Assembly: GCF_002113885.1 (NCBI RefSeq)
Contig: NW_018479948.1
Span: 1 to 64,000 of the forward strand
Length of the DNA: 64,000 nt
Reading direction: 5' to 3'
DNA from: Mizuhopecten yessoensis
Lineage: Eukaryota
The first letter of the stretch is position 1, and each line of letters begins with the position of its first letter. Positions 3,009 to 47,113 of this stretch are shown one piece after another. The translations under genes were made by a program, and so were the position numbers. Below the pieces are notes generated by a model. It ran no database searches, was not told where the DNA came from, and saw only the letters and a list, made by a program, of their open reading frames with translations.

Positions 3009-5406
3009 TTAATATTTTTGTTTATAATCGTCCTCATCGTCTTCATCGTCTTCATCGTCCTCATCGTCCTCATCGTCCTCATCCTCGTCATATTCGTCTT
3101 CATCCTCGTCGTCTTCCTCCAGGATGTTCGTCTGACGGCTTTCCGCTTTCACACTCCGGCGACTCGGTAGAGTACTTTGACGATTTCCGGACTGGAGCGA
3201 CAATCGACTTCCGGAAGCTTTGGAGGAGCCACTATCGATGTGAGCATGCCATGAGCCAATGTTGGCTCTGAAGGCTGGCGTGATGTCATAGGAAACGACT
3301 TTTTTGGAAGCTACAGAAAAACAAGTCAAGAAAGATAACTCCTGTAATATTACGAAATTAACATTAAGTCTACCAGAGTTCTTTCGCTTGGTATGGGCTT
3401 GTTGAGTTTATTGCGTCAGACTCTGGTAAATTCAGAACTCCGATATACTCAATGCATTAATTTCAAATTTAAGCCTCGATTCCTGTGACTTATATAGATT
3501 GTTGTGATATACATGTTGTAAATACATCACAGACAAACATCTAGGTGTAGCCAGTGCCGTATGCTAGAGATGGCATGTTAGTATAAGGATCGGATGCCGC
3601 TTTAAAGTGCTTACTGAATTACCATGCAAAAGGCATCAAGCACGCATTCACCTCGGTTACATTATCTGAACATCAGGTTTACCATCTGTAACGATTACCT
3701 CACTTGAGCGAGCGTTCATAATCAACGCTAAGACAAAAAGCAAGGTAACGCCACGTTAGGACACGAAAAAGGTCTTTAAAAAGAAGAGCAACATAGATTT
3801 TACAGATGTTGTAATGGGCAAAGCAGATTTATTTTGGTTGCTTTGTTCCCTAAAGTAAACGACAAAAAAAGACTCAAATTATGCAGGAGTCCATTAGTGG
3901 TTGTCTCTTACGAATCGGGCAATGGGTAGCAGCCGGTACATTCTTTCCTATATCTCCGATCTGTAGGGATAATTTACTTTAATGAAGCAATAGTCTTGAC
4001 CGGTTTTAATTATCAATCACAAAATATATTTTTTCAGTGTACGGCTTCAACGACTTTACCAAAAGCTTTGTCTTTTTACGTGAAAGTTATACTTTACAAA
4101 CGAACTTACCCGGGTCGTACATCCGGCCCTGGAAACGTCGTACTGTGTCGATCTTTTTCTTTATCCGGAATCTGTCCTTGCGCGAGTTCCTACTATCCAA
4201 ACGACTTTCGGACCCTGCGTATGACGAGGCGGTCTGGCGACCCTGTGCCGACATGAAGGGGCTCTCAGGCAGAGGGGGCAGGGAATAGGGGACAGAACGT
4301 TGGGACATCGGTGTTGATCTTTCCCTTGAAGGGGGCGGGGAGTATCCTATTTGGGGCAATGGTATAATGGCTCTTATACCACTTGGTTTAGCCATAGCTT
4401 CCTCCAACGCTCTCTGCCGTTCAAGCTCTTCTTCGTCCTCTTCCTCCTCCTCATCGTCATAATCATCATCTTCATCGGATTCTCTTCCCCATCGTCCATC
4501 GAATTGTTCATCACCATGATATGTGTAATCGTCGTCATCCTCGTCCTCTTCTTCTTGTTGAGTGTTATCATCGTCGTCATCGTCGTCGTCATCATCTTCA
4601 TCTGCCTCTTCCTCTTCTTCTACATACTCACCTCCTAGAAATTCCGGATTTGGATATCCCTTTACAAAGTTAGTTTTAGGAGGAGCTTGGCTCCGTTTTC
4701 TGCGTTTAGGTTCCTCCATAAATTCGTTCCAGTTAAAGTCAAATTTGTACACACCGGCATGCGCCTCACCTTGAACTCCGTTATGTTTGCACTCGATTTT
4801 TTCATACACCATAGAAGGAATGTTTTTATTGCTTTTCTTTGGAAAACAATGACACGGTTCAGGGCCGTCCATAAGTTCAACCCGAGGGCCGGAAACCTTT
4901 TTCGCCCCTGGCCTAGTCGCCGGATCATACTCTGGGTAAAAATCCTCAATATAAGCACTTTTTTCGTCTTCGTCGCTGTCTTCCTTCTCCTCTTCTTCGG
5001 TTCCGTATTCCCTTTCGTCGTCTTCCTCTCCTTCCTCGTATTCATCATCATCGTATTGTGACCCATAGCTCTTCGCCTCAGACTCGTCTGCCTGGCTAGG
5101 TGTATGACGGAACACAATTTGGTTTGAAAGTCTACTTTGCACAAGGTGGTTAGTCTTCGTTGTTCCCGCAGTTTGTCTACTCGTCTCTCGTCCTGTCCGT
5201 CTGCTAGCAGCCTGGGACCCTTTCTTACTCATCCGAGTCTGCTGATATCTTGAGTCCTCACCTGGTTGATATCCACTCGTCATTTGTTGACTCCGAGTCT
5301 TCTCTGACCTCTTTGACCCTTGACGCGCCGACAATTTTGTGTCATTTCTCGTTGATCTCGCTGCACCGGTAACACGTGTTGTGGTGCCTTGTTGGCGTGA
5401 CGTCAT
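3009..5406 (-). CDS. Two-exon gene for an uncharacterised ~532-aa protein: Asp/Glu-rich and S/R/Q/T-rich, probably disordered
   Basis: Exon 1 is 5406-4110 (ATG ... MYDP G|GTAAGT, phase 1). Exon 2 is 3310-3009 (pyrimidine tract tttcttgacttgtttttctgtag|CT, phase 1, continuing ASKKVVSYD...DDYKQKY*). Total 1599 nt, in frame. This joins the ORF-track entries 4087..5406 and 3009..3329. Confidence 0.75.
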
Positions 5407-10066: not shown

Positions 10067-13000
10067 TCAGCTAGCTGCCCGGACACTGGGGAGATTGTGA
10101 AGCAGGCTGTTTTTCTTATAACACCCAAGACTACACAGAGGAACACCAGTCCGAGAACAGGCGTACTTCTTTACATTCTTACACCCTGATATACTGCAGT
10201 ATTCCTTCGCTTTCGGTGGTCTGAAATATTAAAGATTTAATTTTATGAAACAAGATTTCACTTGCTGTCTACTTGTGTCTAAGTGATACCTACAGAAAGC
10301 TGATAGTGGCTAGAGTGATTAACTGAATTTTCCTTGTGGATTCACCGTTAGTCATTGGTAGTCAAAAATATTCTAGGTAACATATTACCGTACTAAAATT
10401 GCATTAATTGAGTTTGAGGAAGAGCAAGAATGATTGAATTCAGATGCCTTCCTAAGTCAGAAATGAGGGAGTAAAATAGGGTGTCTATCACCAAAATATT
10501 TTACCATGTAAAGACTCACTTGATTACAGAAACAATGTCTGGTATTAAATTTGCCACAAGACTGGCAAACAGAATTAAGGCAGGTGATGCAAAGTCAAAT
10601 CAGAGAAAATGAAAGGGTCAAATTCACTTGCAGCAAGAGAGATCAGTGAGCCATGGTCAGTTATCTCCCCTTGTCAGTTAGACAAATTACCTCCCCTGTC
10701 TGTAGGACCTTGTTATACATGGTCAGTTATCTCCCCTTGTCAGTTAGACAAATTACCTCCCCTGTCTGTAGGACCTTGTTAAACATGGTTAGTTATCTCC
10801 CCTTGTCAATTAGACAAATTACCTCCCCTGTCTGTAGGACCGTGTTAAACATGGTTAGTTATCTCCCCTTGTCAGTTAGACAAATTACCTCCCCTGTCTG
10901 TAGGACCTTGTTAAACATGGTAAGGTACATGTGCATGATGTTAGAATTGATAATCATTTTACTTAAATACCTGGTAGTTTGGGCAGTGAAGGGGAGCTGA
11001 AATCCTACTGGCACTGAGATTGTTATCCTGGACTGGTTGTTTGTATACCGGAACCTTGGGATGTTGGCCCTTTTAAATCCTTTCCCCTGTAAACAGGATC
11101 AATCACACTGGTGTTTAGTTACAAGGCAGAAAAAAGCGAAAAGAACAGGTTTAAATTGATGCTGTGATCATATATAATGTAGCATCAACACAAAGGCCTC
11201 GATATGTTTTACTCGTAAAGACAGATGCCATGATTCGGCATGTGTCTGTATTAACACAAATAATTTTTTAATTGATACATTTAAGAATATAGAAGATATT
11301 CAAATATAAAATGTATGTATGCTAACCATATCAAAAGCAGAAATAATTCTTTTGTAGTCAATCATCATCTTCCATATATCATAAACATAAAATAACAAAA
11401 AGACATATGGACACGAACACTAATTCCAAACTACAAACTGCAGTGGAACACAACAAAATATACAGGTTCATTTATTTTGTTTATGAAGTTATAACCTACA
11501 GCCAAAAATTTAAAATACAATGTTGAAATGTCTTACTTTTTTCTTGGAGTCCTGTTTCTTCAGCAGTCGGTCTAGAGTCAGTTTCTGTAAAAGTACGATC
11601 AATGGAAACATTAGAGGTAGACCTGCCAAAGTCATTCATCAAGACCCTGCTGTCAAATTTCACTAACCTTAACATCATATCTATTAAATCAGATATTGAA
11701 AATAGCAATTATTATCGAAAGTCTTATGATGCTTTGAAAACAGTTGCAAAGTAATCAGATTTACATTTAGTATTTAAGATACAATTAACATGTTTTATAT
11801 TACTCCAGATGTTCCTTCTAAGTTAAAAAAAATGGAGGTTCATTCATGTTGTTAGGTTTTTACAATAAAGATAAATTAATCTTTGAAAACCTGAAAAAAT
11901 CTAAATAACATCCTAAGTGATAAAAGATGATAATTTTAAATTATGAAATTTTAACTCCTCTACTACTGTTGGCATGATTCAATTGTTCAGATGAAATATA
12001 ACCATTTTTCACATTAAAACATGTCCAGCCTGAGAGAAAAATCCCGACATCCTTTCAGAGATATGGAAATTTAGACAACTTCCCATATTTACTCTGTCGT
12101 ACCTTGTCCTTCTCCCGTTTTTCGTGAGCCTGTTGACGCCGTTTCTTAGCCCTCTGTACTCGTTTCAGCTGCTGTTCCTCTGTCAGCTCCACCTGTTTGT
12201 AGCCTGGAGAACACAAACATTTATACTCAAATTGCACATTATAATGTAGCCCAGAGAACAATACAACCAAGTTGTACTTAAACCATTGAACAAACAGAAT
12301 CATTGGTGATGTCTTACTTAAAAGTAGGTAAGAGGAGTAACTGTTAATATTTATGTAAGGGAATCCAGAGTAACTGTTAATATTATGTAAGGGGATCCAG
12401 AGTAACTGTTAATATTTATGTAAGGGGATCCAGAGTAACTGTTAATATTTATGTAAGGGGATCCGAGTAACTGAGAGATATAAGTAATGGGGTCATTATT
12501 GATGTTTTCATTTTGAGAAGCAAGCAAGGGGAATAACTGCTGATGGGTGTTTTTTCTGAGAGAAGTAAAATATTTGAAAGGGAAGCCACTGTTGATGTAA
12601 TACTAGTGAGAGATACATCGTAACATGTATTTAATGGGAGTTGGTGTTGATGTAATACTAGTGAGATATACCTCGTAACATGTATTTAATGGGATATGGT
12701 GTTGATGTAATACTAGTGAGATATACCTCGTAACATGTATTTAATGGGGGATGGTGTTGATGTAATTCTAGTGAGAGATACCTCGTAACATGTATGTAAT
12801 GGGAGATGGTGTTGATGTAATACTAGTGAGAGATACCTCGTAACATGTATTTAAGGGGAGATGGTGTTAATGTAATACTAGTGAGAGATACCTCATAACA
12901 TGTATTTAATGGGAGTTGGTGTTGATGTAATACTAGTGAGAGATACATCGTAACATTTATTTAAGGGGAGTTGGTGTTGAAGAGGTATTTCAGAGGAGTC

Positions 13001-16000
13001 ACTTCTGATATTTCGCTAGAGATATAAGTAATTGGGTCATTGTTGATATTTTCTATGAAATTAGTAAGTAAAAAGTATAACTGCTGATGTTTCCCCGAGA
13101 CAAATAGCATGTAAGGGGAGTTACTGCTCATGTTTTACCTGAGGGAAGTTCCAAAAGAGCCTCTTCTTTGTTGCCATGAATAAGAGCTCTCTGAAAGGTA
13201 CAACAGACAAACACTACTATAGAAATAAGACATTATTTTTCAATGCAGTTGTTTGCAGGTCCTGATTGCTACAAAGGAATACTTAAAATCACATTTAACT
13301 TTTCCAGACCCTTAAAGTGTGTACTTAAAAGTTACTTGATACTGTAGTATTACACATTTAACATGAACATTTTAGTCAATAAATATAATACAATGTACAA
13401 CTTTGTGACAAAATTAACTTTAAATACATATTTTTCACATTTAAAATGAATTCAAAAGGGAATTATCCTTTTTTATTTATGAAAGTATATCTACATTGAA
13501 ACTTACTAGCTAGGTAAACTTGTAATTATTTTGTTCTTGCGAATTCAGAGACTGAAATACATTAACCATTCCATAACATATGTTTTGACAAAACATGTCA
13601 ATTCAAACTTCAGTTTATTAAACATCATTAACTGTTTTGCAGTTCATAATTTCCACAACATTTCACAGTAGATATACACAGCAATAGGAACTAATTCGGA
13701 ATTGAAAGTTTCATCACATCAAAATCAGATTTTAAAGATGTGATCAAATTAAATGGTGTTAAACATTTTGTGAGGATGCAATTAACTTTACTGAATCTAA
13801 AATTGGTACATGTACTATTAATTACAGGAAAACATTTATTGTGAAATGATTGTACCTGTCTAGCAGTTAATAACCTTGGGTCTTTGCTTTTCTTCAGCAT
13901 TCCCGAGTCGTCTAAGTCACCTTTCTCTAGAGCGTCCAGCCATTCTTTCTCCTCATCGGAGGTATCTTCCTTCTTTTCCCCCAATGCTGGTGATGCTAGT
14001 GTTGATGGTTGGGCAGAGGGGATGTCGGAGACGGTGGAGGATGTTATCGTGGCTGTTATTGCAGCTGAGGGAGGGGAGCCTTAAAATGAAATTCATTATC
14101 ATTACATCAGCATTCTGTCATAGAAATAAAATAATTCAGAGACTATCCAGGTTATTTATTGTACATGTGTGGATGGTACAATAAGATATCCTCGCCCCCG
14201 CATGGTTCTGAGTTTCATACCTGAAATCAAGTGTATACCACACAAAAAGATATTTCAGTCTTAATCCTGACTCTTGGGACACAGATAATTGAGCCCTGGA
14301 CGCATGATTGTCTTGTGAGACTCCCCAGCATTATGAAGACACTTTATATATACTTTTTGGTACATATATGTAATGGGACCTCATCAATGTTTTATGTTCA
14401 GGACTTGTCTGAAAAATCCTACAGAAATCACTGCCTGGTAATGGTTAGAGGAATGAAAACTGTGGCAAACTTTATCATTTATAGCAAAACAAATTAATTT
14501 TACAAGTAACTATACACTGTGTGAATGTCTGAGTCCTATAATGTAATGGGTTATCCAAGATCTAAATATTCTGCAAAGCTGTATAATCCAGATCAACTTT
14601 GATTCAGTATATAATTTATGTTACAGCTGTTTAATTTCTATTCCAAACAGAAATATTTTTGCTAAAGGTGTTAGAATTAGACAGGTTTAACTGCTGTAGT
14701 TACCCCAGGTGTCATTGAGGACATCTATGATCTGGTCCTGTGAGTCCTCAGAGCTGTCCTTCTGTTTCTGGTCTACAGGTGTGATACTGAAACACAGCCA
14801 AGTAAAGAGAGATTCCCAATGAAGGAATTCTAATCTATTTCAAGTTCTATCATGATAATGTTTGCTCTAGGTCCAATTCTTTTTACCTTTTCTTGTATGT
14901 GGTAACTTAATACCGAAAAATAGAGATTGTAAAATTGTTCACACCATACACCTACATGTAAGAAATATCTCTCAGTAACAAAGCAGTACTGACCTTTTGC
15001 ATCAGTAATACTACGGAACTAGATGTCCGTGGTATTAATATAATGTAGGTGAATTCAAGACTTTTACTTCAAGGAAATAAAACAAAAGCGTCCAACAAGG
15101 AAAACAATGGTGTATATATGGGATTCTGCTTAGCCTCGTTTATAATGGCATAATAAATAAGTTATATTAAATGTCATATTTATATCTTGCTGGCATTAAC
15201 TGAAGCGTTTAACTGATATGCATTGGTATAAATATGCTGTTTATCTATAGCTTATAAAGTTTGCATATTAGTGTGGTGAATGCATAACTAACAATATTCA
15301 GAACAAAATATTTTGAAAATTATCAGTACAAAATAAAGATGAATCTGTATATGCTTGTAACAGATATATGTTCTAAAGGGAAATGCCCTCTAGTGCGAAG
15401 CTATAAGGAGACCATAATCCTATGTACAATTAAAATCTGCCACATATATATGTGATATAGCACTTTGAACCGGCGCGTCTAATTACCCAATACTACCTAA
15501 TACTACCCAATACTACCCCATACGACCCAGTTATGAACCAAATACTTCTTTATTACTGTGAAATATCACCTTTGTAGATGTTATTTACTTCCATCTGTCA
15601 TATTTTATCGGGAAATATGCGATTTGGTGCCGAAAACATCACCGAATTGCCGTGACTATGACCCAATACTACCCCATACCACGGAATTAGATTAGATCTA
15701 AGTCCGTGCCCATACCACCCAATACTACCTCATACGACCCAGTTATGAACCGTATACTTCTTTATCACTGTGAAATGTCACAGTTATTTACCTCTATATG
15801 TCACATTCTATCTGGAAATATGTGATTTGGTGCAGAAAACATCACCGAAATGCCGTGACTAGGGGTTCGACGATTTACAGGAACGGGCAGAAATCTATTA
15901 ATTATTATATAGGCCTATACATTAATGAATATATATATTAGATACATTTAAGTATCATTATCGGGTATAAGATATATTTGATAAAAGGATTGCAATTACA

Positions 16001-18290
16001 TGATACTATATTAATTCTATTCATGTCATAAAATGGTGTTATTAAGATCATATATATAAATTTAGCAGGAAATATTTAGAAAATTTGAAATTACTTTTCA
16101 AAAATGTTAGTTATTCAATTTTGTTAAACATAACAGTATCAATTATCTATGTAAAAATTAAATAGATTAATAAAAGGAATTACGTCACGCTTCTTATACA
16201 TCAATCCAGAGACGTATATATTACATTACGTAATATATACGTCTTTGATCATCCGAAAGCAAAATACTAAATGACATGAAAACTTGATTCGACTCCCAGA
16301 GATACTGTATCCACATATATTTTATTCAACTCGTTGGCCATCTCAAGTAAATGTGATCTCTATAGGTACATGGTAGATAATAATTTTTTTATGCAATGAA
16401 CGTTATAAACGTATTGACGTACATGAACATTCTACTTTTTTTTTTATTTATAACAACTATCGATATAATATGTATAAATATAGATTTGTTCCAATATATA
16501 CTAAAGATACATGGTCGTGAAAAGTAAATCTACTCATACTAAATACTCGTCGAATTTATTTAATCAAATTTAAGTCTTTAAAAACATCAAGTTAGATGAA
16601 TGCATAACCACAGACTTTATCCAATTCCGTGTACAATATCTAATTTTAAACATAAACTTAGTCCCGTGCAATTGAATAGATTCTTGATATATGAAATCCA
16701 TTTAAAATCAGCGAAATCATTTTTATGTAAATTCAGCATAAGCTTGTATATTATTCTGAATTTGAAAAAAAATGAAACTTAAAGCGTTTCACCGTGTTTC
16801 TTTCTTCTTTGCATATACAATTAATATACAGTATTGTTTTTCTATAACAGATAAGGCCTAACAATCCAACATATGGACTTCAATATTTATTTACGTAAAA
16901 CATGTATTTCAATTAACTTATATTTACATATAGAATAATATTTAATTTTCAGATTGATGTCCCTTTTTTTGAGTTGGAAAATTGCGTATTTTCTTTTTTT
17001 TAAGATCGTAGACGTGATGGGATTGTAATCTACACATTAACACCAATTAATTCACTCAAAATATATTCATGCTATTTATTAAGAGTTGAGTATAAGTTAT
17101 GAAGTTATTAACATTTAGTTATCATAATTTCATTTCCAATGTTTCAGGTGTTATGACATCGCAATAACAATGTCATATATATAAATGAGAAAATAACNNN
17201 NNNNNNNNNNNNNNNNNNNNNNNNNNNNNNNNNNNNNNNNNNNNNNNNNNNNNNNNNNNNNNNNNNNNNNNNNNNNNNNNNNNNNNNNNNNNNNNNNNNN
17301 NNNNNNNNNNNNNNNNNNNNNNNNNNNNNNNNNNNNNNNNNNNNNNNNNNNNNNNNNNNNNNNNNNNNNNNNNNNNNNNNNGGGTAGTATTGGGTCATAG
17401 TCACGGCAATTCGGTGATGTTTTCGGCACCAAATCGCATATTTCCCGATAAAATATGACAGATGGAAGTAAATAACGTCTACAAAGGTGATATTTCACAG
17501 TAATAAAGAAGTATTTGGTTCATAACTGGATCGTATGGGGTAGTATTGGGTAGTATTGGGTGGTATTGGATAGTATTGGGTGGTATTGGGTAATTAGACG
17601 CGCCCCTTTGAACAGTCGATAGCCTTAGCACATTATTTTGGATTTCTTACTTCTTTGTTCCCAAGGTTTCCCCACCAATCTTTAGTTTCAGCTTAATGGC
17701 AGGTTTTGCCAATCCCCCTGGAGCTCCCAGAGCAAAGGGATCAAGGTCATGGTCCCTTCTCTTCTTGTGCTTCTTTTTATGTTTCTTATGTTTCTTGTGG
17801 GAACTGCTAGGGGAGTCCACTATAAACAACAACAAAACATAGAGCATACAGCATGCTCCTGAATGTACATACAACCTATAGCTTTGTGTCTACGCATATA
17901 TGATATATAAAACACAGTCAAAATACAAATACAATCTGGAGAATTGTTGCCATATTGATCTATATATGTAAATATATATACCACCCGTGTACTTATATTA
18001 GTTCACCAAATTACACCCTAATCAGACAGAGCAAGACACGAATATGATACAGTTCTTTTTGATATTAGAAATTTAGGCTAAGCTCATGCCTTACTGTGTC
18101 GTGCTACACGGTGCCCTGTGAAGAAACATTAAAAAACGATTAATTCAACCCCCCCCCCCGCCTAATTTGTAACTGCATGAAACTTCTTTAGCGTACACGT
18201 ATTAGCACAGGTAGTTTTGATACCCGGTTAATGAGTGTAATTACCTGAAAGTAACTCTTCCTCTGTTCCAGAACCTTTACGTTTTCCCAT
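10067..18290 (-). CDS. INO80B: INO80 complex subunit B (PAPA-1 / Ies2 homologue), 9 coding exons, ~330 aa, with a C-terminal HIT-type zinc finger
   Basis: Exons: 18290-18245, 17819-17651, 14786-14704, 14079-13856, 13190-13139, 12203-12103, 11584-11537, 11086-10971, 10220-10067. All are GT-AG with consistent phases; total 993 nt. Diagnostic motifs: HKKHKKHKKKHKK; IKLKLKIGGETLGTK; EEKEWLDALEKGDLDDSG..KDPRLLTARQRAL; LTEEQQLKRVQRAKKRRQQAHEKREKDKKLTLDRLL (PAPA-1); CSISGCKNVKKYACSRTGVPLCSLGCYK (zf-HIT). Confidence 0.95.
10651..10921. repeat. 66-bp tandem repeat (~4 copies) in INO80B intron 8
   Basis: The unit catggtcagttatctccccttgtcagttagacaaattacctcccctgtctgtaggaccttgttaaa repeats and produces the spurious ORF 10653..11000. 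Confidence 0.95.
12335..12980. repeat. Two related minisatellites in INO80B intron 5: ~33 bp at 12335-12473 and ~49 bp at 12590-12980
   Basis: Units gagtaactgttaatatttatgtaaggggatcca and ggtgttgatgtaatactagtgagagatacctcgtaacatgtatttaatgggag. Confidence 0.9.
15471..17605. mobile_element. Apparently non-autonomous DNA transposon with long (>=200 bp) terminal inverted repeats and an 8-bp TSD, in INO80B intron 2
   Basis: The left end cggcgcgtctaattacccaatactacc and right end ggtattgggtaattagacgcgccc are inverted matches extending about 200 bp, up to the N gap. The identical 8-mer ctttgaac flanks both ends (15463-15470 and 17606-17613). The interior is AT-rich with a gap at 17198-17381. Confidence 0.9.
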
Positions 18291-20405: not shown

Positions 20406-22642
20406 ATGGCAGAGAAATACTTTTTTGGACATGGACTATATGCCCAATTATCATCCTACAAGGACGAGACCTACGTCCACATCGATGGCCGTAATGGACG
20501 GAGCGCGAGTGTGACAGGTGCCGAGTTCCTGAGTGTAATATTAATACTGTAATAATATTATTGTAGGATTGTACTGTAAGATGGATGCAACAGTGCCTGC
20601 TATACCAGTGTGAACGCACGGTATGGGTGAATGTAATGCTATGTAGTATACAATCGTAATAGTATTGTAAAATGAATGTAATAATGTATATCACAGTGTA
20701 TGATGAGTGTCATTGTATGCGCAGTGCGTTATATTGTCTATTATAACAAGGTATGATAGTACGTATGAACAGTGTAATAGTGTGCTTATCATTGTATGAG
20801 AAGTGTAATTGTTTCCACTATATTATTGTACGCTAGCATAGTAAGATGAGTGCTTTACGGTCAACCATATCATTGTTATATTGTACTTTATGATGACCTC
20901 TTCTTGCGCACAACAGTGTGCCTGAGTGATAATACAAATCTCTGAAAATCTCTGAACCTGTCACAAAACTATGACCTCCTCATGGAGGGAATTAACCGGC
21001 TGAGGCGGGTAAGTGTGAAAGTTCTAAACATATTTATATTACAACATGTATCAAACTGGTTATACGAGATGAAAAGCGTTTAACACTTCCAAATCCTGCT
21101 GTTTATACTTTATTGTATAATGATCAGTAAATGTTGATATTATATGTGTTATGTTTTAGGAATCGTGCTCGCCAAAAACACCCACAGCAACACCAGGCCT
21201 ACCTCCGATATCAAAAACCCCCACAGCAACACCAGGCCTACCTCCGATAGCAAAAACACCCACAGCAACACCAGGCCTACCTCCTATATCAAAAACACCC
21301 ACAGCAACACCAGGCCTGCCTCCGATATCAAAAACACCCACAGCAACACCAGGCCTGCCTCCGATATCAAAAACACCCACAGCAACTCCAGGCCTACCTC
21401 CGATATCAAAAACACCCACAGCAAAACCAGGCCTACCTCCAATATCAAAAACACCTACAGCAACACCAGGCCTACCTCCAATATCAAAAACACCTACAGC
21501 AACACCAGGCCTACCTCCAATATCAAAAACACCTACAGCAACACCAGGCCTACCTCCAATATCAAAAACACCCACAGCAAAACCAGGCCTACCTCCAATA
21601 TCAAAAACACCCACAGCAACCCCAGGCCTACCTCCCATATCAAAAACACCCACAGCAACACCAGGCCTCCCTCCAATATCAAAAACACCCACACCAACAC
21701 CAGGCCTACCTCCGATATCAAAAACACCCACAGCAAAACCAGGCCTACCTCCAATATCAAAAACACCCACAGCAAAACCAGGCCTACCTCCAATATCAAA
21801 AACACCTACAGCAACACCAGGCCTACCTCCAATATCAAAAACACCCACAGCAACACCAGGCCTACCTCCAATATAAAAAATTATGAGTAATGCTTTGTGT
21901 TGCTTTTCTACTGCAGATACTCTTCATTTCTAACAATTGATATTCAAATGAAAAATGAAAATTATGCTTATTTGACTTTAATACTCTTCATAGACTCCAG
22001 ACATGGTATTACCACCAGTTCCAGTACGTCAAATTCTGGCACCAGCACCGGCTAACGTGGCGAGTACATGCTATTTTCACTGTTTGATTATATAATAGTT
22101 AGCTACAGGTTAAGTACTAAATATCAGATTCCTATACTCCAATGTTCACGTGAGCGTCAAACACTTTTACTAACACATTGTATGGCCGCGCAATCCTATA
22201 AACAAATATTGTTTCACTGTCCTCTGTAAGTATTATTCATATTGACCATATTTCGATTTTATATGTATACACCAAACATGATTGAGAAAATACTAATCAA
22301 GCGCTTAATCATTTCCAGTCTGACGAGCCACAAATGAAAACAGAGGTGACTTCCCCTCAAAATCAAGCAGCTTGGTAAGTTTCAATACACCATGAATACG
22401 TTTTACCTACTATTTCTATAGATTTCGAGGTCTCCAGAAGGTGAGTGTAGTATTTAAGTTCAGCTGTACTCTAATCGTTTTCCCGCACATATTTTAACAA
22501 AATATCAAAAAGCGTTTCATCCGTTACTGAATAATTTTCTCACGAAGAATATTCATTTTTATTTCAGCTGACCGTCGACTTTCAGGATATTGAAGTCAAT
22601 GAGGACGTCATGAAGGTCCTCCTCGCCTCTATTGACTTGTAG
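20406..22642 (+). pseudogene. Disrupted intron-containing gene: PC4-like N-terminal domain, then a Pro/Thr-rich 14-aa repeat, then short downstream exon-like blocks
   Basis: 20406-20531 reads MAEKYFFGHGLYAQLSSYKDETYVHIDGRNGRSASVTGAEFL. After a ~420-bp insertion, 20955-21008 reads NLSQNYDLLMEGINRLRR|GTAAGT. The phase-0 acceptor ttttag|21160 opens ESCSP(KTPTATPGLPPIS)n up to a TAA at 21874. Further AG/GT-bounded blocks lie at ~21993-22109, 22319-22374, 22422-22440 and 22568-22642; their frames are unresolved. Confidence 0.55.
21170..21880 (+). repeat. 42-bp minisatellite, ~17 copies, probably coding
   Basis: Unit aaaacacccacagcaacaccaggcctacctccaatatca. Variation is mostly at third positions of the KTPTATPGLPPIS frame. 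Confidence 0.95.
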
Positions 22643-22699
22643 GTTATAATTATTTGATTTCTTAATTTGAGTTTTATTGGGGAAAAAATAGATGAAAAA

Positions 22700-23450
22700 T
22701 CAATATGTAGTAGTAATATATCCCAGGGTTTTAACATCACACAACTGCCATACTCTTTGTGCATGGCCACAATCCTCTTGTGAAATGTCTTCTTTGGATA
22801 AATCACCATAGAAAGATGATTTTGGGGATAACCGAACGTCAGAAAACTTGGAGTCGTCCGTCAAGTACTGGTAATGATAAATCTCCTTCCTGAGCAAGAT
22901 TTCCCTGTGTTCCGGTCGAGTAAACCCTTCCTAAAATATTTGAAATTGTCGTGTCCTTTTTCTTAGAGATTGGTCACCAATGTATCCAGTGAACTGGGCA
23001 TAAAACGGCACGAGTCCAAAAAGCGTAAATTCCCGAGTGAAAAGGAGATGTAGTTTTTCATGTTTTGTGCTATGCATGTGATATTTTGCTCTTTGTATTT
23101 TCTTATTGCATCCCAGAGTATGTGTCCATCGAACCGCGACATGTTGTGATAAAACACTGGAATGTGTTTTGGGTGTTTAACATTCAAATTACATTTGTTG
23201 CAGGCAGCTCCCCGGAACACCCCCCCCCCCCCCCCCCCCCCCCGTCACGTGGTAATGGTCCTTTAGCTTGTCTTTGTTGTTTTTAAAGTACTTGTTGCAT
23301 AGATAACATTTGTTCGTATTGTCAAAAGTCTCCTGATCTTCTTGGGTCATGGCCATGGGTTCCATGTCACTCAAAGTTTGCTGGATTTCTCTTTCTTCTT
23401 CAATGAGATAATTAATAAACGTTTCTACCACGTTAGGTCCACGTTGACTC
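22700..23450 (-). pseudogene. Polinton/Maverick protein-primed family B DNA polymerase fragment (endonuclease VII-like Zn-binding segment plus exonuclease region), frameshifted
   Basis: Reads CYLCNKYF..KLKDHYHVTG / FRGAACNKCNL..IPVFYHNMSRFDGHIL..YISFSLGNLRFLDSCRFMPSSLDTLVTNL / LRKEIYHYQYLTDDSKFSDVRLSPKSSFYGDLSKEDISQEDCGHAQRVW. These match canonical Polinton PolB motifs. A poly-C run at about 23220-23243 breaks the frame. Confidence 0.9.
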
Positions 23451-23489
23451 ATAGTGGTAGATACATGTGTACGTCTTCACCCTTGAGGA

Positions 23490-23910
23490 TATGACTGGTA
23501 CTTTTTATCTGTGTGTGGACTTTAATCTATCAAGAGATATCCGTATTTTGCTGCAGTGGCCGTTTCGTAAGCTTTTGTGAAATATTGAGCTTTGGTAGGA
23601 AATATCTGTCTCCCTAAGATATAGACTTGCTGCTTATCTCTCTTGATTTTGAAAAAAACCGATATAATGACTATTCAGAGAAATCGTACGCATGCACTTG
23701 CCTTTAGAAAATGCATTTTGTGTCAAAAAGATGACGGTGGTATTGTGATGATGACAGCCGACCGTAAATAAATGTTGTACGTCGACACTATTGCACACCG
23801 TTTCCATCAAATCATCTAAAATTAGTAACAATGGTAACCCGTCCCACCACCATTCTTCTAAATTTTCTTTTGTAGTTATCCCTTCGTGAAAGGTTAAGTT
23901 TTTATGATCC
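23490..23910 (-). pseudogene. Polinton A32/FtsK-like DNA packaging ATPase, C-terminal half
   Basis: Reads LTFHEGITTKENLEEW..LLLILDDLM (Walker B)..LFTVGCHHHNTTVIFLTQNAFSKGKCMRTISLNSHYIGFF. After a frameshift it continues RDKQQVYILGRQIFPTKAQYFTKAYETATAAKYGYLLID*SPHT. Walker A is missing. Confidence 0.9.
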
Positions 23911-23999
23911 GTGTGGTAAAGGATATTGTATTAAATAGGTACAGAGTGTCGAATTAAACTGTATGGGTGGTGATGTTTCGATCTTTACACAGTCTGATG

Positions 24000-24506
24000 T
24001 CACGTAATGATGTTTACTCGTAGATATATACATAGGCTGGTAACGGTGATAGATAGCAACACAATAACTCCTGTTAGCTTTAGTATCGTAAAATGGATCT
24101 TGTATTTGTCAGATATACTGTCGTAACTGCTGGATAAACATGTAGTGAGCATGATGCTTTCTGTTTCACAATCCTTCTGATCCATGTTTTCGGTAACAGT
24201 GACATTCGAAGACTGAATCAGTTACTAGTATTCATCGCCATATGAAGCCGACAGTATAACGACCTGTTCCAATAGTACTAATCTGTTACAAAATTATTTA
24301 AATGCTTTTGGCCCCCTACGCGGTAAAATGTCTAATAATTTTCTTGCTCTGTCGAATCGGTTGTTTTCTACGATGATACCTTACACCATGTACTTGGGTA
24401 GAATATTGGATTTGAATAAATGATCTGTAACATATAATGTCGGTAGACGTTCTACGAGCAACACTCGGTTCTTTCTTAAAACGGATTTGTGCACACTGTC
24501 CATCAT
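24000..24506 (-). pseudogene. CARD-domain gene (RAIDD/caspase-2-like CARD) with an in-frame C-terminal hydrophobic segment and four in-frame stops
   Basis: From the ATG at 24506: MMDSVHKSVLRKNRVLLVERLPTLYVTDHLFKSNILPKYMV*GIIVENNRFDRARKLLDILPRRGPKAFK*FCNRLVLLEQ. The same frame continues after TAG TAA (24227-24222) into ORF 24000..24185, which ends ILKLTGVIVLLSITVTSLCIYLRVNIIT. Confidence 0.75.
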
Positions 24507-24870
24507 AAATCGATGTTCTCCTGTCTGTAATTTTCAAACTAACCCATGTGTCGATATGAACAAAAAGTTCTAACAGTTTTGATTTAAGACGGGTGAATTC
24601 AAACGTTGGAAATAAACTGGACATTTAATAATTCTCTTATCTCTGACAAGGGTCTTCAAATAGTTCGGGAAATGTTTAGCACGCTTTTTTTTTGCCAGGG
24701 AGAGCACCCGGTGACCTCACGGGTTTCAGAGAAATAAACCGGGCATTTAATAATCCTCTTACCCACACATTTAAATCGACACCTGAAACGTTGTCATACG
24801 TTTTGGGTTTTGATCTAATGGTACGGTAATTTGATAATTTTTATTGTATTTGATGGTCAGTGTGTTTGTG

Positions 24871-25809: not shown

Positions 25810-26290
25810 ACACACGTGATAGACGTTAACTTTTGATCGTGAAGCGTGTGATGAACGTCGACATTTTTTCACTGGATGCACGTGATTGACGTCAAGGTTT
25901 TTTACTCGATGCACGTCACTGACCTTATTTTTTTCTCGATGCACTTGACTGACAATTATCTTTTTACTCGATGCACGTGGTGGACGTTGATTATTTTACT
26001 CGATGCACGTGACTGACGTAAACTATTTTTACTCGATGCACGTGGTTGACGTTAATTCTTTTTCTAGATGCACGGGGTTGACGTAAAAATTTTGACTGAA
26101 TTCACGTTATTGACGTTAAATTTTAAGTTGTAAGTGCGATCTCTCCGTACATAGAAAAAAAGTATTGGAATCTATGTAAAGGTCTGAGATCTGAAGTCAA
26201 CGTAGTTGCATGACGTTAAATATTTTGAATTGATTCACTTGATTGACGCCAAGTTTTTGATTCGATGCACTTGATTGGCGTTTAATTTTC
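25810..26290. repeat. Degenerate ~33-bp tandem array rich in CACGTG and TGACGT motifs
   Basis: Recurring unit tttttactcgatgcacgtgactgacgt, about 12 copies. Confidence 0.8.
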
Positions 26291-28440
26291 ATCATTACAT
26301 GTATGTGGTACCGTTCGTGATGCCAGGTTTTCGGTCAGATGTTAAACGCTGGGTGTAGTTATTTTGTATTAGATGTACGAAAACGATGTCAAATTTGATC
26401 TCGTTGAACGTGTTTGATGTATCGCCGGTGTAAATAAAACCAAAATGAATCGCAACTCCTCTCGTCTCTTTCAATCAATCAGACCTCGCTTCTTAACCGA
26501 GCGTATGATTTATAGCACTACTTGGCAAACTAACTAATGTTGTATAAACGAAAACTGGTGCCCACCCATCCCCTGCACGTGGTCCTAACATGGGAACGCT
26601 TCAGACTTCCACTCCATAACCATGTATGCAATTGGTGAGTATGAAGAGATGAATATACAAAGCTAGCAGGATTTGCCCTAAGGGCCTGACACATTCTTGA
26701 TAACTTTATCCCTCGGTCGTCACATTGAAACTGTCGAAATCGACACCCTTTAACCATATACACATTTAAAGATTTGGAACCGAGGATCGTCCCGATTTCA
26801 GATGACTAAATGCCACGATCATAACTATAACAAGGTCGAGATCCCTACCCGAAAACGATATAAACAATTGTTGAATGTTGTACGCTAGACACGAAGAGTT
26901 GAACACAATGATATCACAAAGGAATGAAGTACAGGGGTCCGGTTTAGTTTAAATCAATTTTATTGCAACAAAAGACAAATGTATTGGACAAAAGTTATTG
27001 CAACTTACTTACGTCCTTTCCGTAACAGAAAATATATATACAAAATTAATGTGTCACGCAATAATCTAATACAGATTTATATATGTATATATATATAAGA
27101 TGTTAAAGATGGGTTACAACAAAAGAGGTAATGATAGGATTAGGGACACCAACGTATAGTGTTTAAATATGTATTCGGAGAGTTTACTTGAGATCGCGTA
27201 TGTGATTTTCCCAATCGAGTCGGCGTAAGTAGTATAACTAATCTATACACACATATCCTTCTGCTTTTCTAAAGTTCAATCACATTCCGTGCCGCATTTG
27301 CTTTTCTCCTGTGTCACTCCAAGTCTTTCTGTTAATTCTTGTCTTACATACTTAGCCGACTAGATTAGGAAAACCGGACACGCACTCTTTGTCATATGGA
27401 AACGGTTATGATATTGATGGACGCTAAGATTAAAGTTAGTACACAGAGATCGTTGGTGTTGGAAAAAGGGAGAGGGGCTGGAATGAGAGAGGAGGGGGAG
27501 GGGAGAGACAGATGGGAATAGTCGAAGTAGGTATCCTGGTTATTCAATAAGACTGTTGGTTATTACATGTTAAACCGTTTGGAGCTAAAAATGAACAGTT
27601 GTACAGACCTACAAATTTGAACGTTTAGATTGTAGTCAAGGTTTGCATCTCCGAAGAGAAGGTGGTCCTATCCTTGGGAACGGATCCGCAGCGTCATAAC
27701 ATGGAGGTGATTGAGATCCCAAACATATCACATGGATATACATATATGTATACGATTCTCTATCGAATTCGATATGATGCCTTCATTAGAAATGGGATTA
27801 TATTGCAGTACAAAGGAAGAGTAAAAACTCCCCTGGTACATTGTAGCCAACGTTCAAGAGAGTAGTGCAGTTCATACACTCTCCTGATCGTAAAATAAAT
27901 CCAAGTCCGTTTACGTTATTACGGGATTTTTCGCGTTATTACGACTTTTATTTTCGCGTTATTACGTATTCACTTCACGTTATTACGTGATTTTATTTCA
28001 AAGTCTAGACATTGTTTTTCACAAAACAGTCATTATTTTCCTAGCGTTGATCAATTTGTAGTGAGAATGAACCAATTCACGTAATTCACGCTCATTGCAT
28101 AACAACGAAATGGCACGACAAACATTTAACGTCGATCTTACACACCGAACCAAATATTTACACTTAAAACGCGACATCGATAGGAAATTTTCACAAGACC
28201 GACAATTTGGCGTCGCGCAGTCGCATCGACCTCGAAATTTACAGTTCACCTCGTAATTTACATACGACATAAAGGCATAAAAGGTCTTCTGATAGGAACG
28301 AAAATTACTTGTCGCTCACACACATCCGGTCGAAAACTCACACTTCATAAGCGACTTCGAAAGAAAACCTCTACTCGTAACACATCGACACGACCGAAAA
28401 GTTGACGTCGTGCAGTCGCATCGACCTCGGAATTTACACC

Positions 28441-28761
28441 TCGGACAAGTTATACAGAGCGTGCTTAAGGAAGGAAAATATGTGCTGGGGAAGGCAAAGA
28501 TTAGAAAATGGTTGGAGAAGCAAGAGGACCACGGGGTGCACGCTAAAGTGACCAGGTAGTTTCGGAGGAGAAAAAGTCATCTCTCCTTTCATAGACTATC
28601 AGTGGGACGCCGACACGGCCGTCTTGGCGTCTCGCGCAACGGAGAACGACGGGTACGGTTACTTTCTGCTGGCGATCGACGTGTTTTCTCGCTACGTGTG
28701 GACGGTTACACTGCGCATGCTGCGGGGATCGGAGATGGTAAAGGCTTTGCGCTCGATGTTA
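28441..28761 (+). pseudogene. Polinton retroviral-like (rve) integrase, N-terminal/core fragment
   Basis: With frameshifts it reads DKLYR/VLKEGKYVLGKAKIRKWLEKQEDHGVHAKVTR*FRRRK/VISPFIDYQWDADTAVLASRATENDGYGYFLLAIDVFSRYVWTVTLRMLRGSEMVKALRSML, a typical Polinton integrase motif set. The ORF track does not show this frame. Confidence 0.85.
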
Positions 28762-29216
28762 CACATGTATATGTAGGTACGTGTGTGTTTGTGCTCATAT
28801 TGTGTCGTTATTGTTTGTGTAAATCAAAACATGAAAAAGCAATTAGAAAAAATAAACCTATGGCTAACATTTCTTTGTAAATATGGAACAGGTACATATA
28901 AAAACTATTGTAGAATATTTTATCTCTGTTAGAAATGATAAAACTAATTTCAATGTTATCAAAGTATTGTGGTATATATCAATTTATTAGATGTACAGGT
29001 ATGTACATTTGTATGTAGGTACGTGTGTGTTTGTGCTGATAATGTGTCGTTAATGTTTGTGAAAATATGAAAACAGTGATAAGAAAAAACAAACAAATGG
29101 CTAATACTTCTGTGTTAATATATATGGAACAGGTATATATATAAACTGTTGTAGAATATTTTCCCCTCATATTATGATGTCGAAAACTACACAACAAATG
29201 TTAACCGGATCTGAAT
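28761..29216. repeat. Right arm of the long inverted repeat (partner 24871-25700)
   Basis: Reverse-complement match described for the left arm. Confidence 0.85.
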
Positions 29217-41052: not shown

Positions 41053-44000
41053 TTATTTAAATGCAACATGTCTGTCGATATCTATTGGTTTGACTTTTAC
41101 GCTGCAGCAGATATTTGGTTTGGAACACAGTCCCGTTCGCTTTTCTGATAAAAGTAAATGTCGGTGTCGATATTTGTTGAATTTATAAAAGTCGTGAAAG
41201 TTTGACGATGTAATAGCAACTGGAAGTGCAATTAATAAAATCCCAACCAATGTACACAAAGTTCCGACGACATATCCGGTGTCAGTAGAGGGAACATGGT
41301 CACCATACCCCACTGTCGTCATGGTGATAACTGACCACCACATGGAAACAAACAGGTCGGAAAATGTATTCGCTTGTAATTCGGCAACGTATATAAATCC
41401 TGCGAATATGATTACAAAACATCCAAAAGCGCAAGCAAGCAGACAAAGTTCCCTTGAGCTAGATTTTATACTCAGATAGAGAATCTGCATTCCACAGTTA
41501 TGACGGACCAATCGCAGGACGCGTAAGATCCGGAACGAGTATAGAAAACCGAACACGCACGAGATGATCCACAATGGGCCGAACTGTAAAGAGTCATGGA
41601 CTCGCTCAAATGACAGGTTCAACCATATACCTACACAGGACAACAGGTCTATGATGTTCAGCAGACTTCTCCAAAATGTCTTCAAGCTAGGACACGTGCA
41701 GATGCGCAGTGCGAATTCTAGTGTCAAAATTCCGTTGGAAATGACATCCAACGCGACCAGTGATGGATGTGGCGATGTGTTCCAAATAAGACGAATTTTT
41801 GCGGAACTTGTGTTACTGTCCAGCTTGTTATCGTCATGTCTGTCAACTCGGAACTGCTTGAGCGTTTGGAGGGAGTATGTCAGTATGGATATACTCATCA
41901 CGAGTGCCAACAGGAAGTGCAAAACCTGCAAGGCAAACACTGCCATTATAGTAGCGACACGGAAACGTTATTATGCAACAAAAACACATCTGTTCCTATG
42001 CTCTAAACTGGGTTTTATTTCTGCTAATATTTCGCCCTTTGGCTTTTTTGACAGTTTTTAAAAAAGGTTTTAGTTTAAACGTATGTATTTTGCCAAAAAC
42101 AATGACATTTTAACATTATCAACGCTTTCTTCTACTTAGCTTGGTTGTTTTGTTATGAGAATTCCATTGGATAATTCTCATTCAGTAAGGCTTGAATTGA
42201 TATTATTATTCATCTATCTTGAACAATAACTGCAGTTTGTTTCCCTTTCTCCGTCCTGAAGTTTTCCTGATGGCTACCTCCATTGTAAGCACAGTAGTTA
42301 TGTCTATTTGTATAATGTACCTTTGCTGTATGTATTTTACTACAATGTGTGAATAGTGAAAGTACGTACCTATGTAATAATTTAACACTAGGCATATATA
42401 TGTGGAAACCCAATTATATTCCATTTCAGCATTAGCCCTTTTTACTAATGAAATTAAACACTGTTCACACCTAGCTATTGCCACATGACTATTGTCAGTA
42501 AGAAGGTTAACACATGGACTAATGACAACTGGACTAATGACATGCACACTGTTCATACCTAGCTATTGACACATAACTATTGTCAGTAAGAACGTTAACA
42601 CATGGACTAATGACAACTGGACTAATGTCATGTACACTGTTCACACCTAGCTATTGCCACATGACTATTGTCAGTAAAAACGTTAACACCTGGACTAATG
42701 ACATGTACACTGTTCACACCTAGCTATTGCCACATGACTATTGTCAGTAAGAACGTTAACACATGGACTAATGACACCAGGACTAATGACATGTACACTG
42801 TTCACATCTAGCTATTGCCACATGACTATTGTCAGTAAAAACGTTAACACATGGACTAATGACACCTGGACTAATGACATGTACACTGTTCATACCTAGC
42901 TATTGCCACATGACTATTGTCAGTAAAAACGTTAACACATGGACTAATGACACCTGGACTAATGACATGTACACTGTTCATACCTAGCTATTGCCACATG
43001 ACTATTGTCAGTAAAAACGTTAACACATGGACTAATGACACCTGGACTAATGACATGTACACTGTTCATACCTAGCTATTGCCACATGACTATTGTCAGT
43101 AAAAACGTTAACACATGGACTAATGACACCTGGACTAATGACATGTACACTGTTCATACCTAGCTATTGCCACATGACTATTGTCAGTAAAAACGTTAAC
43201 ACATGGACTAATGACACCTGGACTAATGACATGTACACTGTTCATACCTAGCTATTGCCACATGACTATTGTCAGTAAAAACGTTAACACATGGACTAAT
43301 GACACCTGGACTAATGACATGTACACTGTTCATACCTAGCTATTGCCACATGACTATTGTCAGTAAAAACGTTAACACATGGACTAATGACACCTGGACT
43401 AATGACATGTACACTGTTCATACCTAGCTATTGCCACATGACTATTGTCAGTAAAAACGTTAACACATGGACTAATGACACCTGGACTAATGACATGTAC
43501 ACTGTTCATACCTAGCTATTGCCACATGACTATTGTCAGTAAAAACGTTAACACATGGACTAATGACACCTGGACTAATGACATGTACACTGTTCATACC
43601 TAGCTATTGCCACATGACTATTGTCAGTAAAAACGTTAACACATGGACTAATGACACCTGGACTAATGACATGTACACTGTTCATACCTAGCTATTGCCA
43701 CATGACTATTGTCAGTAAAAACGTTAACACATGGACTAATGACACCTGGACTAATGACATGTACACTGTTCATACCTAGCTATTGCCACATGACTATTGT
43801 CAGTAAAAACGTTAACACATGGACTAATGACACCTGGACTAATGACATGTACACTGTTCATACCTAGCTATTGCCACATGACTATTGTCAGTAAAAACGT
43901 TAACACATGGACTAATGACACCTGGACTAATGACATGTACACTGTTCATACCTAGCTATTGCCACATGACTATTGTCAGTAAAAACGTTAACACATGGAC

Positions 44001-47000: not shown

Positions 47001-47075
47001 CGGATAATAATTTGTGAACCGCTTTGAGACGACCTACGAACTAGGTTGTGATAAAGCGGTATCTAAGAACCCCGA

Positions 47076-47113
<38 letters not shown>

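Follow-up and report, generated by a model that had tools for sequence, protein, structure and literature searches.

A stretch of 64,000 nt of Mizuhopecten yessoensis DNA (contig NW_018479948.1, positions 1 to 64,000), here called the window, was described in a preliminary way as containing at 20406 to 22642 a spliced gene that converges on the DNA polymerase (PolB) of a Polinton and encodes a PC4-like protein, either a binder of single-stranded DNA (ssDNA) or a coactivator. This raises the question whether a Polinton carries a gene with spliceosomal introns, what the product of such a gene would do and whether the copy in the window is still able to make it. Intact vertebrate Mavericks were reported as intronless in the main text of PMC8097293, cargo genes with introns occur close to the left repeat of nematode Mavericks (10.1101/2022.07.12.499685), and adintoviruses carry IAP and Bcl2 homologues, with no PC4 in the main text of the report (PMC8502044). 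A bivalve expansion of PC4 to up to 18 genes was described in an account whose accessible text does not mention transposons (PMC9223095). The accessible text of PMC11296320, PMC11662393, 10.1101/2024.01.15.575659, 10.64898/2026.10.13.758929 and 10.1101/2023.08.22.554363 adds nothing on this gene. No account of PC4-like or spliced PC4-like Polinton genes was found in the openly available literature, subscription papers and supplements being outside its scope, and the gene maps of PMC8502044 or Repbase may label such genes; no single-strand-binding protein was named for Polintons in the papers searched.

Taken as a whole, the reading favoured here with moderate confidence is that the locus is a dead copy of a seven-exon Polinton gene, the intact form of which was likely nuclear, with a PC4-like head that would dimerise, bind ssDNA and aid replication or transcription of the element.

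Layout of the locus

DNA and protein searches of the 988-Mb assembly revealed two further copies of the gene, on C107 and on C2412, as well as four short pieces that derive from its 3' part. The exons, the insert and the neighbouring Polinton pieces of the window are as follows.

20406..20531, plus strand: exon 1, 5' piece, with the four predicted strands of the PC4-like head
20532..20954, plus strand: insert, the 3' end of a 5'-truncated LINE with a tandem AATCTCTGA tail and without target duplication
20955..21008, plus strand: exon 1, 3' piece, with the head helix followed by the conserved phase-0 donor
21009..21159, plus strand: intron 1, GT-AG, 27% GC, at the codon position of the sister family's intron
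21160..21882, plus strand: exon 2, Pro/Thr linker, 39-nt unit expanded 18-fold, in-frame stop at 21874-21876, non-GT donor
21994..22059, plus strand: exon 3, Pro-rich linker, GC donor in the window copy versus GT in both paralogues
22220..22225, plus strand: remnant of micro-exon 4 (24 nt, basic), 24-nt gap versus C107 and C2412, acceptor and most of the exon gone
22319..22374, plus strand: exon 5, with a predicted nuclear localisation signal in the second basic cluster; not in frame in the window copy
22422..22440, plus strand: micro-exon 6, 19 nt in the window copy and 18 nt in C107
22568..22642, plus strand: terminal exon 7, acidic-hydrophobic frame open in three of three copies, its use hinging on the phase of exon 6
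22721..23443, minus strand: protein-primed PolB piece, truncated and frameshifted, with a long PolB frame of the same genome as tblastn match (E 2.5e-55)
23495..23909, minus strand: packaging ATPase piece, tblastn E 1.7e-23, Pox_A32 E 0.05
23903..24122, minus strand: 5' part of a separate canonical PC4 gene of the element, cut by a deletion, 85-87% DNA identity to L089/L090
24252..24490, minus strand: broken CARD-domain gene, tblastn E 6.6e-13 to an ORF assigned to CARD by Pfam
24555..24870, unstranded: inner part of a family of Polinton terminal inverted repeats, 78-92% alike with L131 and L132 in each of their two arms
28296..28773, plus strand: broken retroviral-type integrase, rve E 0.017 (below cut-off), tblastn E 4e-10

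The rearranged Polinton remnant spans about 20.2 to 29.4 kb of the window and contains the core trio of protein-primed PolB, packaging ATPase and retroviral-type integrase as broken pieces; the PolB piece reached 15.6 bits with DNA_pol_B_2, below the cut-off. Major and minor capsid genes and the protease gene had no window match among the ORFs of the compared loci, in a heavily deleted element. Because the window keeps just the inner part of the terminal repeat, the ends of its own Polinton are undefined. Within the remnant, a 32-bp unit built around CACGTG is repeated eight times at positions 25863-26125, possibly as a regulatory array.

Elsewhere in the window, a potassium-channel gene was located on the minus strand at 41056-49324 (BTB_2 exon 48671-49324, Ion_trans exon 41056-41967), with a 45-copy array of an 88-bp tandem unit (99% matches) in the intron between the two exons. 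An ORF of 439 aa that contains long acidic stretches and fits no Pfam family convincingly lies at 4087-5406 (minus strand), and exon(s) of the host gene NSRP1 lie at 59533-60322 (plus strand; 80.7 bits). Exons of a further host gene at 11499-17889 (minus strand) had no Pfam match and contain the motif HKKHKK...LKLKI, from which we take the gene to be INO80B-like.

Exon-intron structure

The preliminary description joined an ATG-opened frame, MAEK...GAEFL (ATG at 20406, end at 20531), to the frame NLSQNY...RLRR at 20955-21008 by removal of an insertion, and this join stands with an insert of 423 nt. The lack of any paralogue in which positions 20531 and 20955 are contiguous had been named beforehand as refuting; C2412 is uninterrupted there, so that this test is passed, and the same empty site was present in run X9. 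Three forms were detected in DNA-type runs, one with the insert, one with the empty site and one with the deletion of C107; since the latter two match paralogues, they are not necessarily alleles. The insert represents a 5'-truncated non-LTR retrotransposon, namely the 3' end of a high-copy LINE. It was assigned on the basis of its copy number (39 other scored places in the genome at 92-95%, with 40 of 139 candidates scored), its AATCTCTGA tail, its 5' end, which is cut short relative to all 11 copies examined, and the reverse transcriptase upstream in longer copies (RVT_1 32.1 bits versus a cut-off of 29.6). Stops are present in frame within the insert.

Downstream of the join, the GTAAGT donor at 21009 and the phase-0 acceptor at 21159 into the Pro/Thr repeat were confirmed, as was the long Pro/Thr linker itself, which amounts to 18.2 x 39 nt in the window copy and to an exon 2 of 60 nt in C107. 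The blocks with short introns that follow are exon-like, with a GC content of 0.47-0.52 versus 0.27-0.31 in the introns. The motif GT[AG]AG occurs six times in sense and not once in antisense per 840-880 bp in each of the two paralogues, with about 1.2 expected per strand, and five of the six motifs per paralogue coincide with predicted exon ends. GT-AG introns were found at conserved, phase-compatible places, and the spliceosomal introns of the preliminary description were upheld by the donors at exon ends and by an intron codon common to the sister family. The seven-exon (six-intron) structure behind the copies is real.

The closest protein, here called P0002, is an uncharacterized RefSeq protein of the scallop Argopecten irradians (XP_069103944.1, 132 aa, gene model on a 39-Mb contig). 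The exon-by-exon alignment to P0002 is collinear, with exon 1 on residues 1-60, exon 3 on 77-89 and exon 5 on 100-117. The 5' piece of exon 1 showed 61% identity over 44 aa; for the 3' piece (residues 43-58) and for exon 5 of C2412 (residues 100-117) none of 500 shuffles reached the same score, exon 3 was equalled by 8-63 of 500 shuffles, and the scores of exons 2, 4, 6 and 7 against P0002 were not significant. The gene copies and P0002 have a common design of a head, a Pro/Thr linker and two basic clusters.

Of the acidic tail previously proposed, the frame itself (LTVDFQ...SIDL, to the stop) does exist, open in three of three copies and with exon-like GC. It joins in frame only after an exon 6 of 18 nt, found in one of four copies (19 nt in the other three), or with exon 6 skipped, and it is absent from the scallop model, so that its place in the protein is uncertain. 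An additional exon beyond the C107 tail was considered and rejected, the acceptor-like stretch being the antisense of the purine-rich end of the BIR gene.

Homologues and the sister family

A HMMER scan of 1.84 billion proteins returned two matches, P0002 and an unrelated 815-aa repeat protein, which leaves P0002 as the sole true protein homologue in that scan. P0002 resembles the gene in 49-64% head identity and in the collinear Pro-rich linker and two basic clusters; it differs by its open frame of 132 aa, by the lack of a tandem expansion and, as annotated, by the lack of an acidic tail. Word-indexed protein searches yielded none of 7 candidates for P0001 (longer search), only the query itself among 18 for P0002 (near search) and none of 3217 for the alignment (longer search). 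No related loci were found in viral and metagenome contigs, a PDB sequence search with P0001 gave chance rows only, the viral fold library gave no E under 0.001, and a 44-aa piece of C2412 had one uninformative match (0.76) in the Atlas.

In the better-preserved Polintons of the genome, a profile of the head weakly picked out frames lying upstream of the ATPase. With one of these sister genes as query, 27 of 33 candidates matched, and many of the matches neighbour Polinton core genes; 22 sister loci were examined, and three duplicate partial matches and two others were left out. The link between the gene and the sister family is supported by pairwise and profile tests versus shuffles, in which the P0002 head scored 16.7 bits and the best of 1000 shuffles 7.1, and by hhalign, which gave a probability of 85% (E 5.8e-6). 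Moreover, the 5' piece of exon 1 outscored 1000 of 1000 shuffles against profiles of the sister family and of the PC4 genes of the same genome.

Counted from the Glu at the helix start, intron 1 of the gene begins at +63 in phase 0. The donor GT of the sister family lies at +63 in 14 of 19 scorable loci, at +66 in four and at +62 in one (three of the 22 loci were unscored), and the five non-identical donors are all within one codon. At 12 of 20 sister loci, an AT-rich intron of 83-226 nt leads in phase 0 into a Pro/Gln/Thr-rich second exon of 41-96 aa; some second exons finish in acidic-aromatic tips and others do not. One intron at the same codon in subfamilies less than 50% alike points to a long dependence on host splicing. 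The sister subfamily L198-L209 seemingly has an extra intron just before the VEVTK strand, which splits the head.

In the whole genome 45 PF02229 matches were counted; of 34 distinct sites, nine have a scored PolB match no more than 25 kb away. Many element-like genes (at L058, L064, L067, L069 and L075) have two tandem PC4 repeats followed by an HxN..C..C motif.

Fold and proposed function of the head domain

AlphaFold2 was applied to P0002 alone and predicted strands at residues 3-5, 12-18, 21-27 and 33-37 and a helix at 38-62, with disorder beyond (pLDDT 75-84 over residues 11-60); the model has the four antiparallel strands and the helix of type II PC4-like domains. In a comparison of this model with 48,161 chains, ranks 1-6 and 8 were PUR(-alpha), human PC4 and fungal Sub1, with Z of 5.4-6.4 and an rmsd of 2.3-3.4 A over 56-61 residues (6.7 A for rank 5), and rank 7 was a COMMD domain with Z 5.4; all Z were below the safe level of 8, and such values may reflect a mere common arrangement. 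Foldseek likewise ranked PUR and PC4 first (human PC4 probability 0.99, E 0.14-0.36), and in the Atlas the top three feature matches (0.83-0.87) and the top structure match (TM 0.61, residues 1-58) were PC4 clusters. The structure, Foldseek and Atlas scores are each under the safe level of the tool and all rest on predicted models of one protein.

Pfam PC4 (PF02229, cut-off 25 bits) had no match up to E 1 for the exon 1 piece of the window, P0001 or P0002, and the best sister gene reached 13.3 bits against the same cut-off. The head matched PC4 weakly over strands 1-3, still above shuffles, and a sister gene did so weakly at the helix start. The sister-family profile found no PC4 among PDB sequences, with weak LAGLIDADG rows (best E 0.002). 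A model of the broken C2412 head had two clear strands only, a best Z of 3.5 and no clear match.

The head is thus like the PC4/Sub1 C-terminal domain of type II (PF02229; 1pcf, 6ycs, 4bhm; PUR repeat III 5fgo, 8chw; PMC7549692) in its predicted single repeat of about 60 residues with four strands and a helix, and in a pattern that agrees over strands 1-3 and the helix start. It is unlike this domain in scoring below the Pfam cut-off, in a very short loop between strands 3 and 4 and in lacking the KGI..W motif; furthermore, it stands at the N-terminus ahead of a long Pro/Thr linker, whereas the human PC4 domain is at the C-terminus. The models make a PC4-like fold of the head probable. The fold put forward in the preliminary description gains moderate support from the scallop homologue model, in which PUR, PC4 and Sub1 come first, and no match from Pfam; with sub-threshold scores throughout, the head probably works like a PC4-type domain and is not filed as a member of PF02229.

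Type II PC4-like domains form helix-swapped dimers and bind single strands on the sheet (PMC7549692), and on that ground the intact product would dimerise in the nucleus and bear two flexible arms of considerable length. By analogy with PC4-like domains in general, from which dimerisation would also follow, ssDNA binding by the intact head is somewhat favoured. The two basic clusters may direct nuclear import, and the Pro/Thr linker and its end may recruit partners. Protein-primed replication requires a single-strand-binding protein. The likeliest use of the product would be to hold the single strands displaced during such replication, or else promoter DNA that has been melted, with the arms recruiting partners.

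The main rival is an adaptor-only reading, given the absent basic loop and the canonical PC4 that the same elements already carry. Here origin and fold would be the same and DNA binding lost; like PUR repeat III, the head would serve dimerisation and display the linker and tail, or it would act as a regulator by pairing with the canonical or host PC4. This is rather unlikely. The two top structural rows are indeed PUR repeat III, a dimerisation repeat (PMC7549692), but the Z differences between PUR and PC4 are below 1 and the two are therefore tied; likewise, the head has neither the long basic loop nor the KGI..W motif of the canonical PC4 frames of the same genome, but the aromatic and His residues on its strands (Y5, F6, YVHI) are retained and would suit base stacking. 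A head that would bind ssDNA is kept as the preferred reading.

That the head is instead an unrelated small domain of strands and a helix is improbable. The missing PF02229 match, the poor C2412 model, the sister profile without PC4 in the PDB and the fact that every Z is below 8 would suit such a domain; on the other side, three methods, which are not independent as they use predicted models of one protein, rank PC4 or PUR first for P0002, and the weak match to PC4 strands 1-3, joined by the helix start in a sister gene, beats shuffles.

Carriage by Polinton elements

The gene is very probably borne by the element, as previously proposed: the paralogues lie in Polinton terminal repeats and the sister genes near core genes. 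The C107 copy is located 1.4-2.6 kb inside an AGTAG terminus, behind the canonical PC4 and BIR genes, and the C2412 copy begins about 50 bp inside the inner end of the terminal repeat; both are broken, and element context was found for three of three copies. The terminal features of Polintons, namely inverted repeats, an AG-rich end and a 6-bp target duplication, were recovered from the AGTAG end of C107 and from the repeat-family member L131, which has both arms and the duplication GACATA on each side. Eleven of 22 sister loci lie within 20 kb of a scored PolB match, and six more have an ATPase, integrase or BIR gene inside 1.5 kb.

The convergence of the gene on PolB, pointed out in the preliminary description, is not supported as meaningful and results from a rearrangement. 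The window is homologous to C107 as far as 22717, and PolB is cut four bases away, for which reason the orientation is attributed to rearrangement of the window copy. The C107 copy faces the BIR gene instead, tail to tail, and both strands of the short intergenic gap carry an AATAAA.

A terminal cassette was observed in this Polinton family (L004:5844-6940 on C107, L090:204-509, window 23903-24490), comprising CARD, canonical PC4 and a CxxC..HPSQ..H plus BIR gene (BIR 53.3 bits, CARD 53.2 bits); it is likely a cell-death-control module. The canonical PC4 frame of L089/L090 scored 26.3 bits with PF02229 versus the cut-off of 25. Two elements of 7.7-8.1 kb (L131:1291-8993 and L132:1005-9141) have long inverted arms of Polinton type and internal tandem modules without a long core ORF, and are probably non-autonomous Polinton derivatives.

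It is unlikely that the gene is a host gene, or captured host cargo, that lies in Polinton remnants by chance. Such an origin would explain a multi-intron structure resembling that of host genes, for which intron-bearing, host-derived Maverick cargo in nematodes offers a precedent (10.1101/2022.07.12.499685), as well as the RefSeq host gene model of P0002 on its 39-Mb contig and the 11 of 22 sister loci without a scored PolB match within 20 kb. However, no intact host copy was present among the three same-genome candidates, element sequence touches all three copies, sister genes stand directly upstream of the ATPase in several elements, and the intron was kept in divergent subfamilies.

As an element gene, it resembles the accessory genes of Polintons/Mavericks (PMC8097293; PMC8502044) in lying in an accessory zone near the terminal repeat, beside the apoptosis-related BIR and CARD genes, and its element has the protein-primed PolB, ATPase, integrase, AG-rich termini and 6-bp duplication of that group. 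It differs in its six introns, one of them conserved across subfamilies, whereas the main text of the same reports gives intact genes as intronless and does not include PC4. The nematode Maverick cargo genes wasp and krma (10.1101/2022.07.12.499685) are likewise spliced and placed between the terminal repeat and core genes; in the accessible text they are regarded as host-derived proteases and kinases, whereas the gene described here, which is related to another of the element's own genes, probably specifies a nucleic-acid-binding helper.

State of the window copy

The window copy is a dead pseudogene, a conclusion held with near certainty and contrary to the encoded protein of the preliminary description. 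In addition to the insert, a stop interrupts the end of exon 2, whose donor is not GT, the donor of exon 3 reads GC, a deletion has taken micro-exon 4 together with its acceptor, and exon 5 is frameshifted. The second half of exon 1 is missing from C107; C2412 has a 1-kb insertion after the start and one stop, and lacks exon 2. Divergence among the copies is similar in exons (19/206, 39/208 and 29/209) and introns (46/410, 47/402 and 48/407), as expected for copies that decayed after integration.

For RNA evidence, 18-24% of each raw run was searched, with the tandem-repeat exon left out of read mapping. Runs X18 and X19 gave zero reads on exon 1 or intron 1 and 21 and 109 reads on repeat parts of the stretch, and the spliced junction 21008-21160, proposed earlier as a check, was not found in any read of these two runs. 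One X18 read pair, below the junction-calling threshold, mapped to the exon 5 and exon 7 bins alone; being less than 95% alike, it comes from another copy, and it is compatible with a spliced transcript. Runs X15 and X20 had 0 reads on 21885-24100 and no comparison stretch, hence are no test, and the contigs of run X1 contain introns and look like DNA.

An expressed and functional window copy from which the insert is removed as an intron is virtually untenable and already contradicted: a GT near the insert start and the intact ATG of exon 1 would allow it, but the insert has LINE copies elsewhere and an empty-site paralogue, no canonical excision keeps the helix (the sole in-frame acceptor sits within it and has no pyrimidine tract), four more breaks lie downstream, and exon 1 had no reads in X18 and X19.

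For the window pseudogene, the history would comprise integration, neutral decay, arrival of the LINE 3' end in exon 1, expansion of the 39-nt unit and a rearrangement that put the PolB piece at the 3' end.

Implications

The window locus is a fossil, and the interest lies in the family behind it: a spliced PC4-like gene family of Polintons that is real and apparently undescribed. Polinton genes have been described as intronless apart from cargo, whereas here a gene of the element keeps one intron across subfamilies. As a tentative wider reading, to which we give somewhat less than even weight, mollusc Polintons may possess, beside the canonical PC4, an old family of PC4-fold genes of their own that is dedicated, spliced and divergent. 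An intron at one codon, inherited through the diversification of the elements, would separate the DNA-binding head from freely evolving linker and tail exons, and an early helper of replication or transcription would need the host spliceosome, on which the element would therefore depend; such a family would also explain much of the bivalve PC4 expansion. The present data suggest that part of the reported expansion is element-borne. The PC4-fold genes are a testable candidate for the single-strand-binding protein of Polintons.
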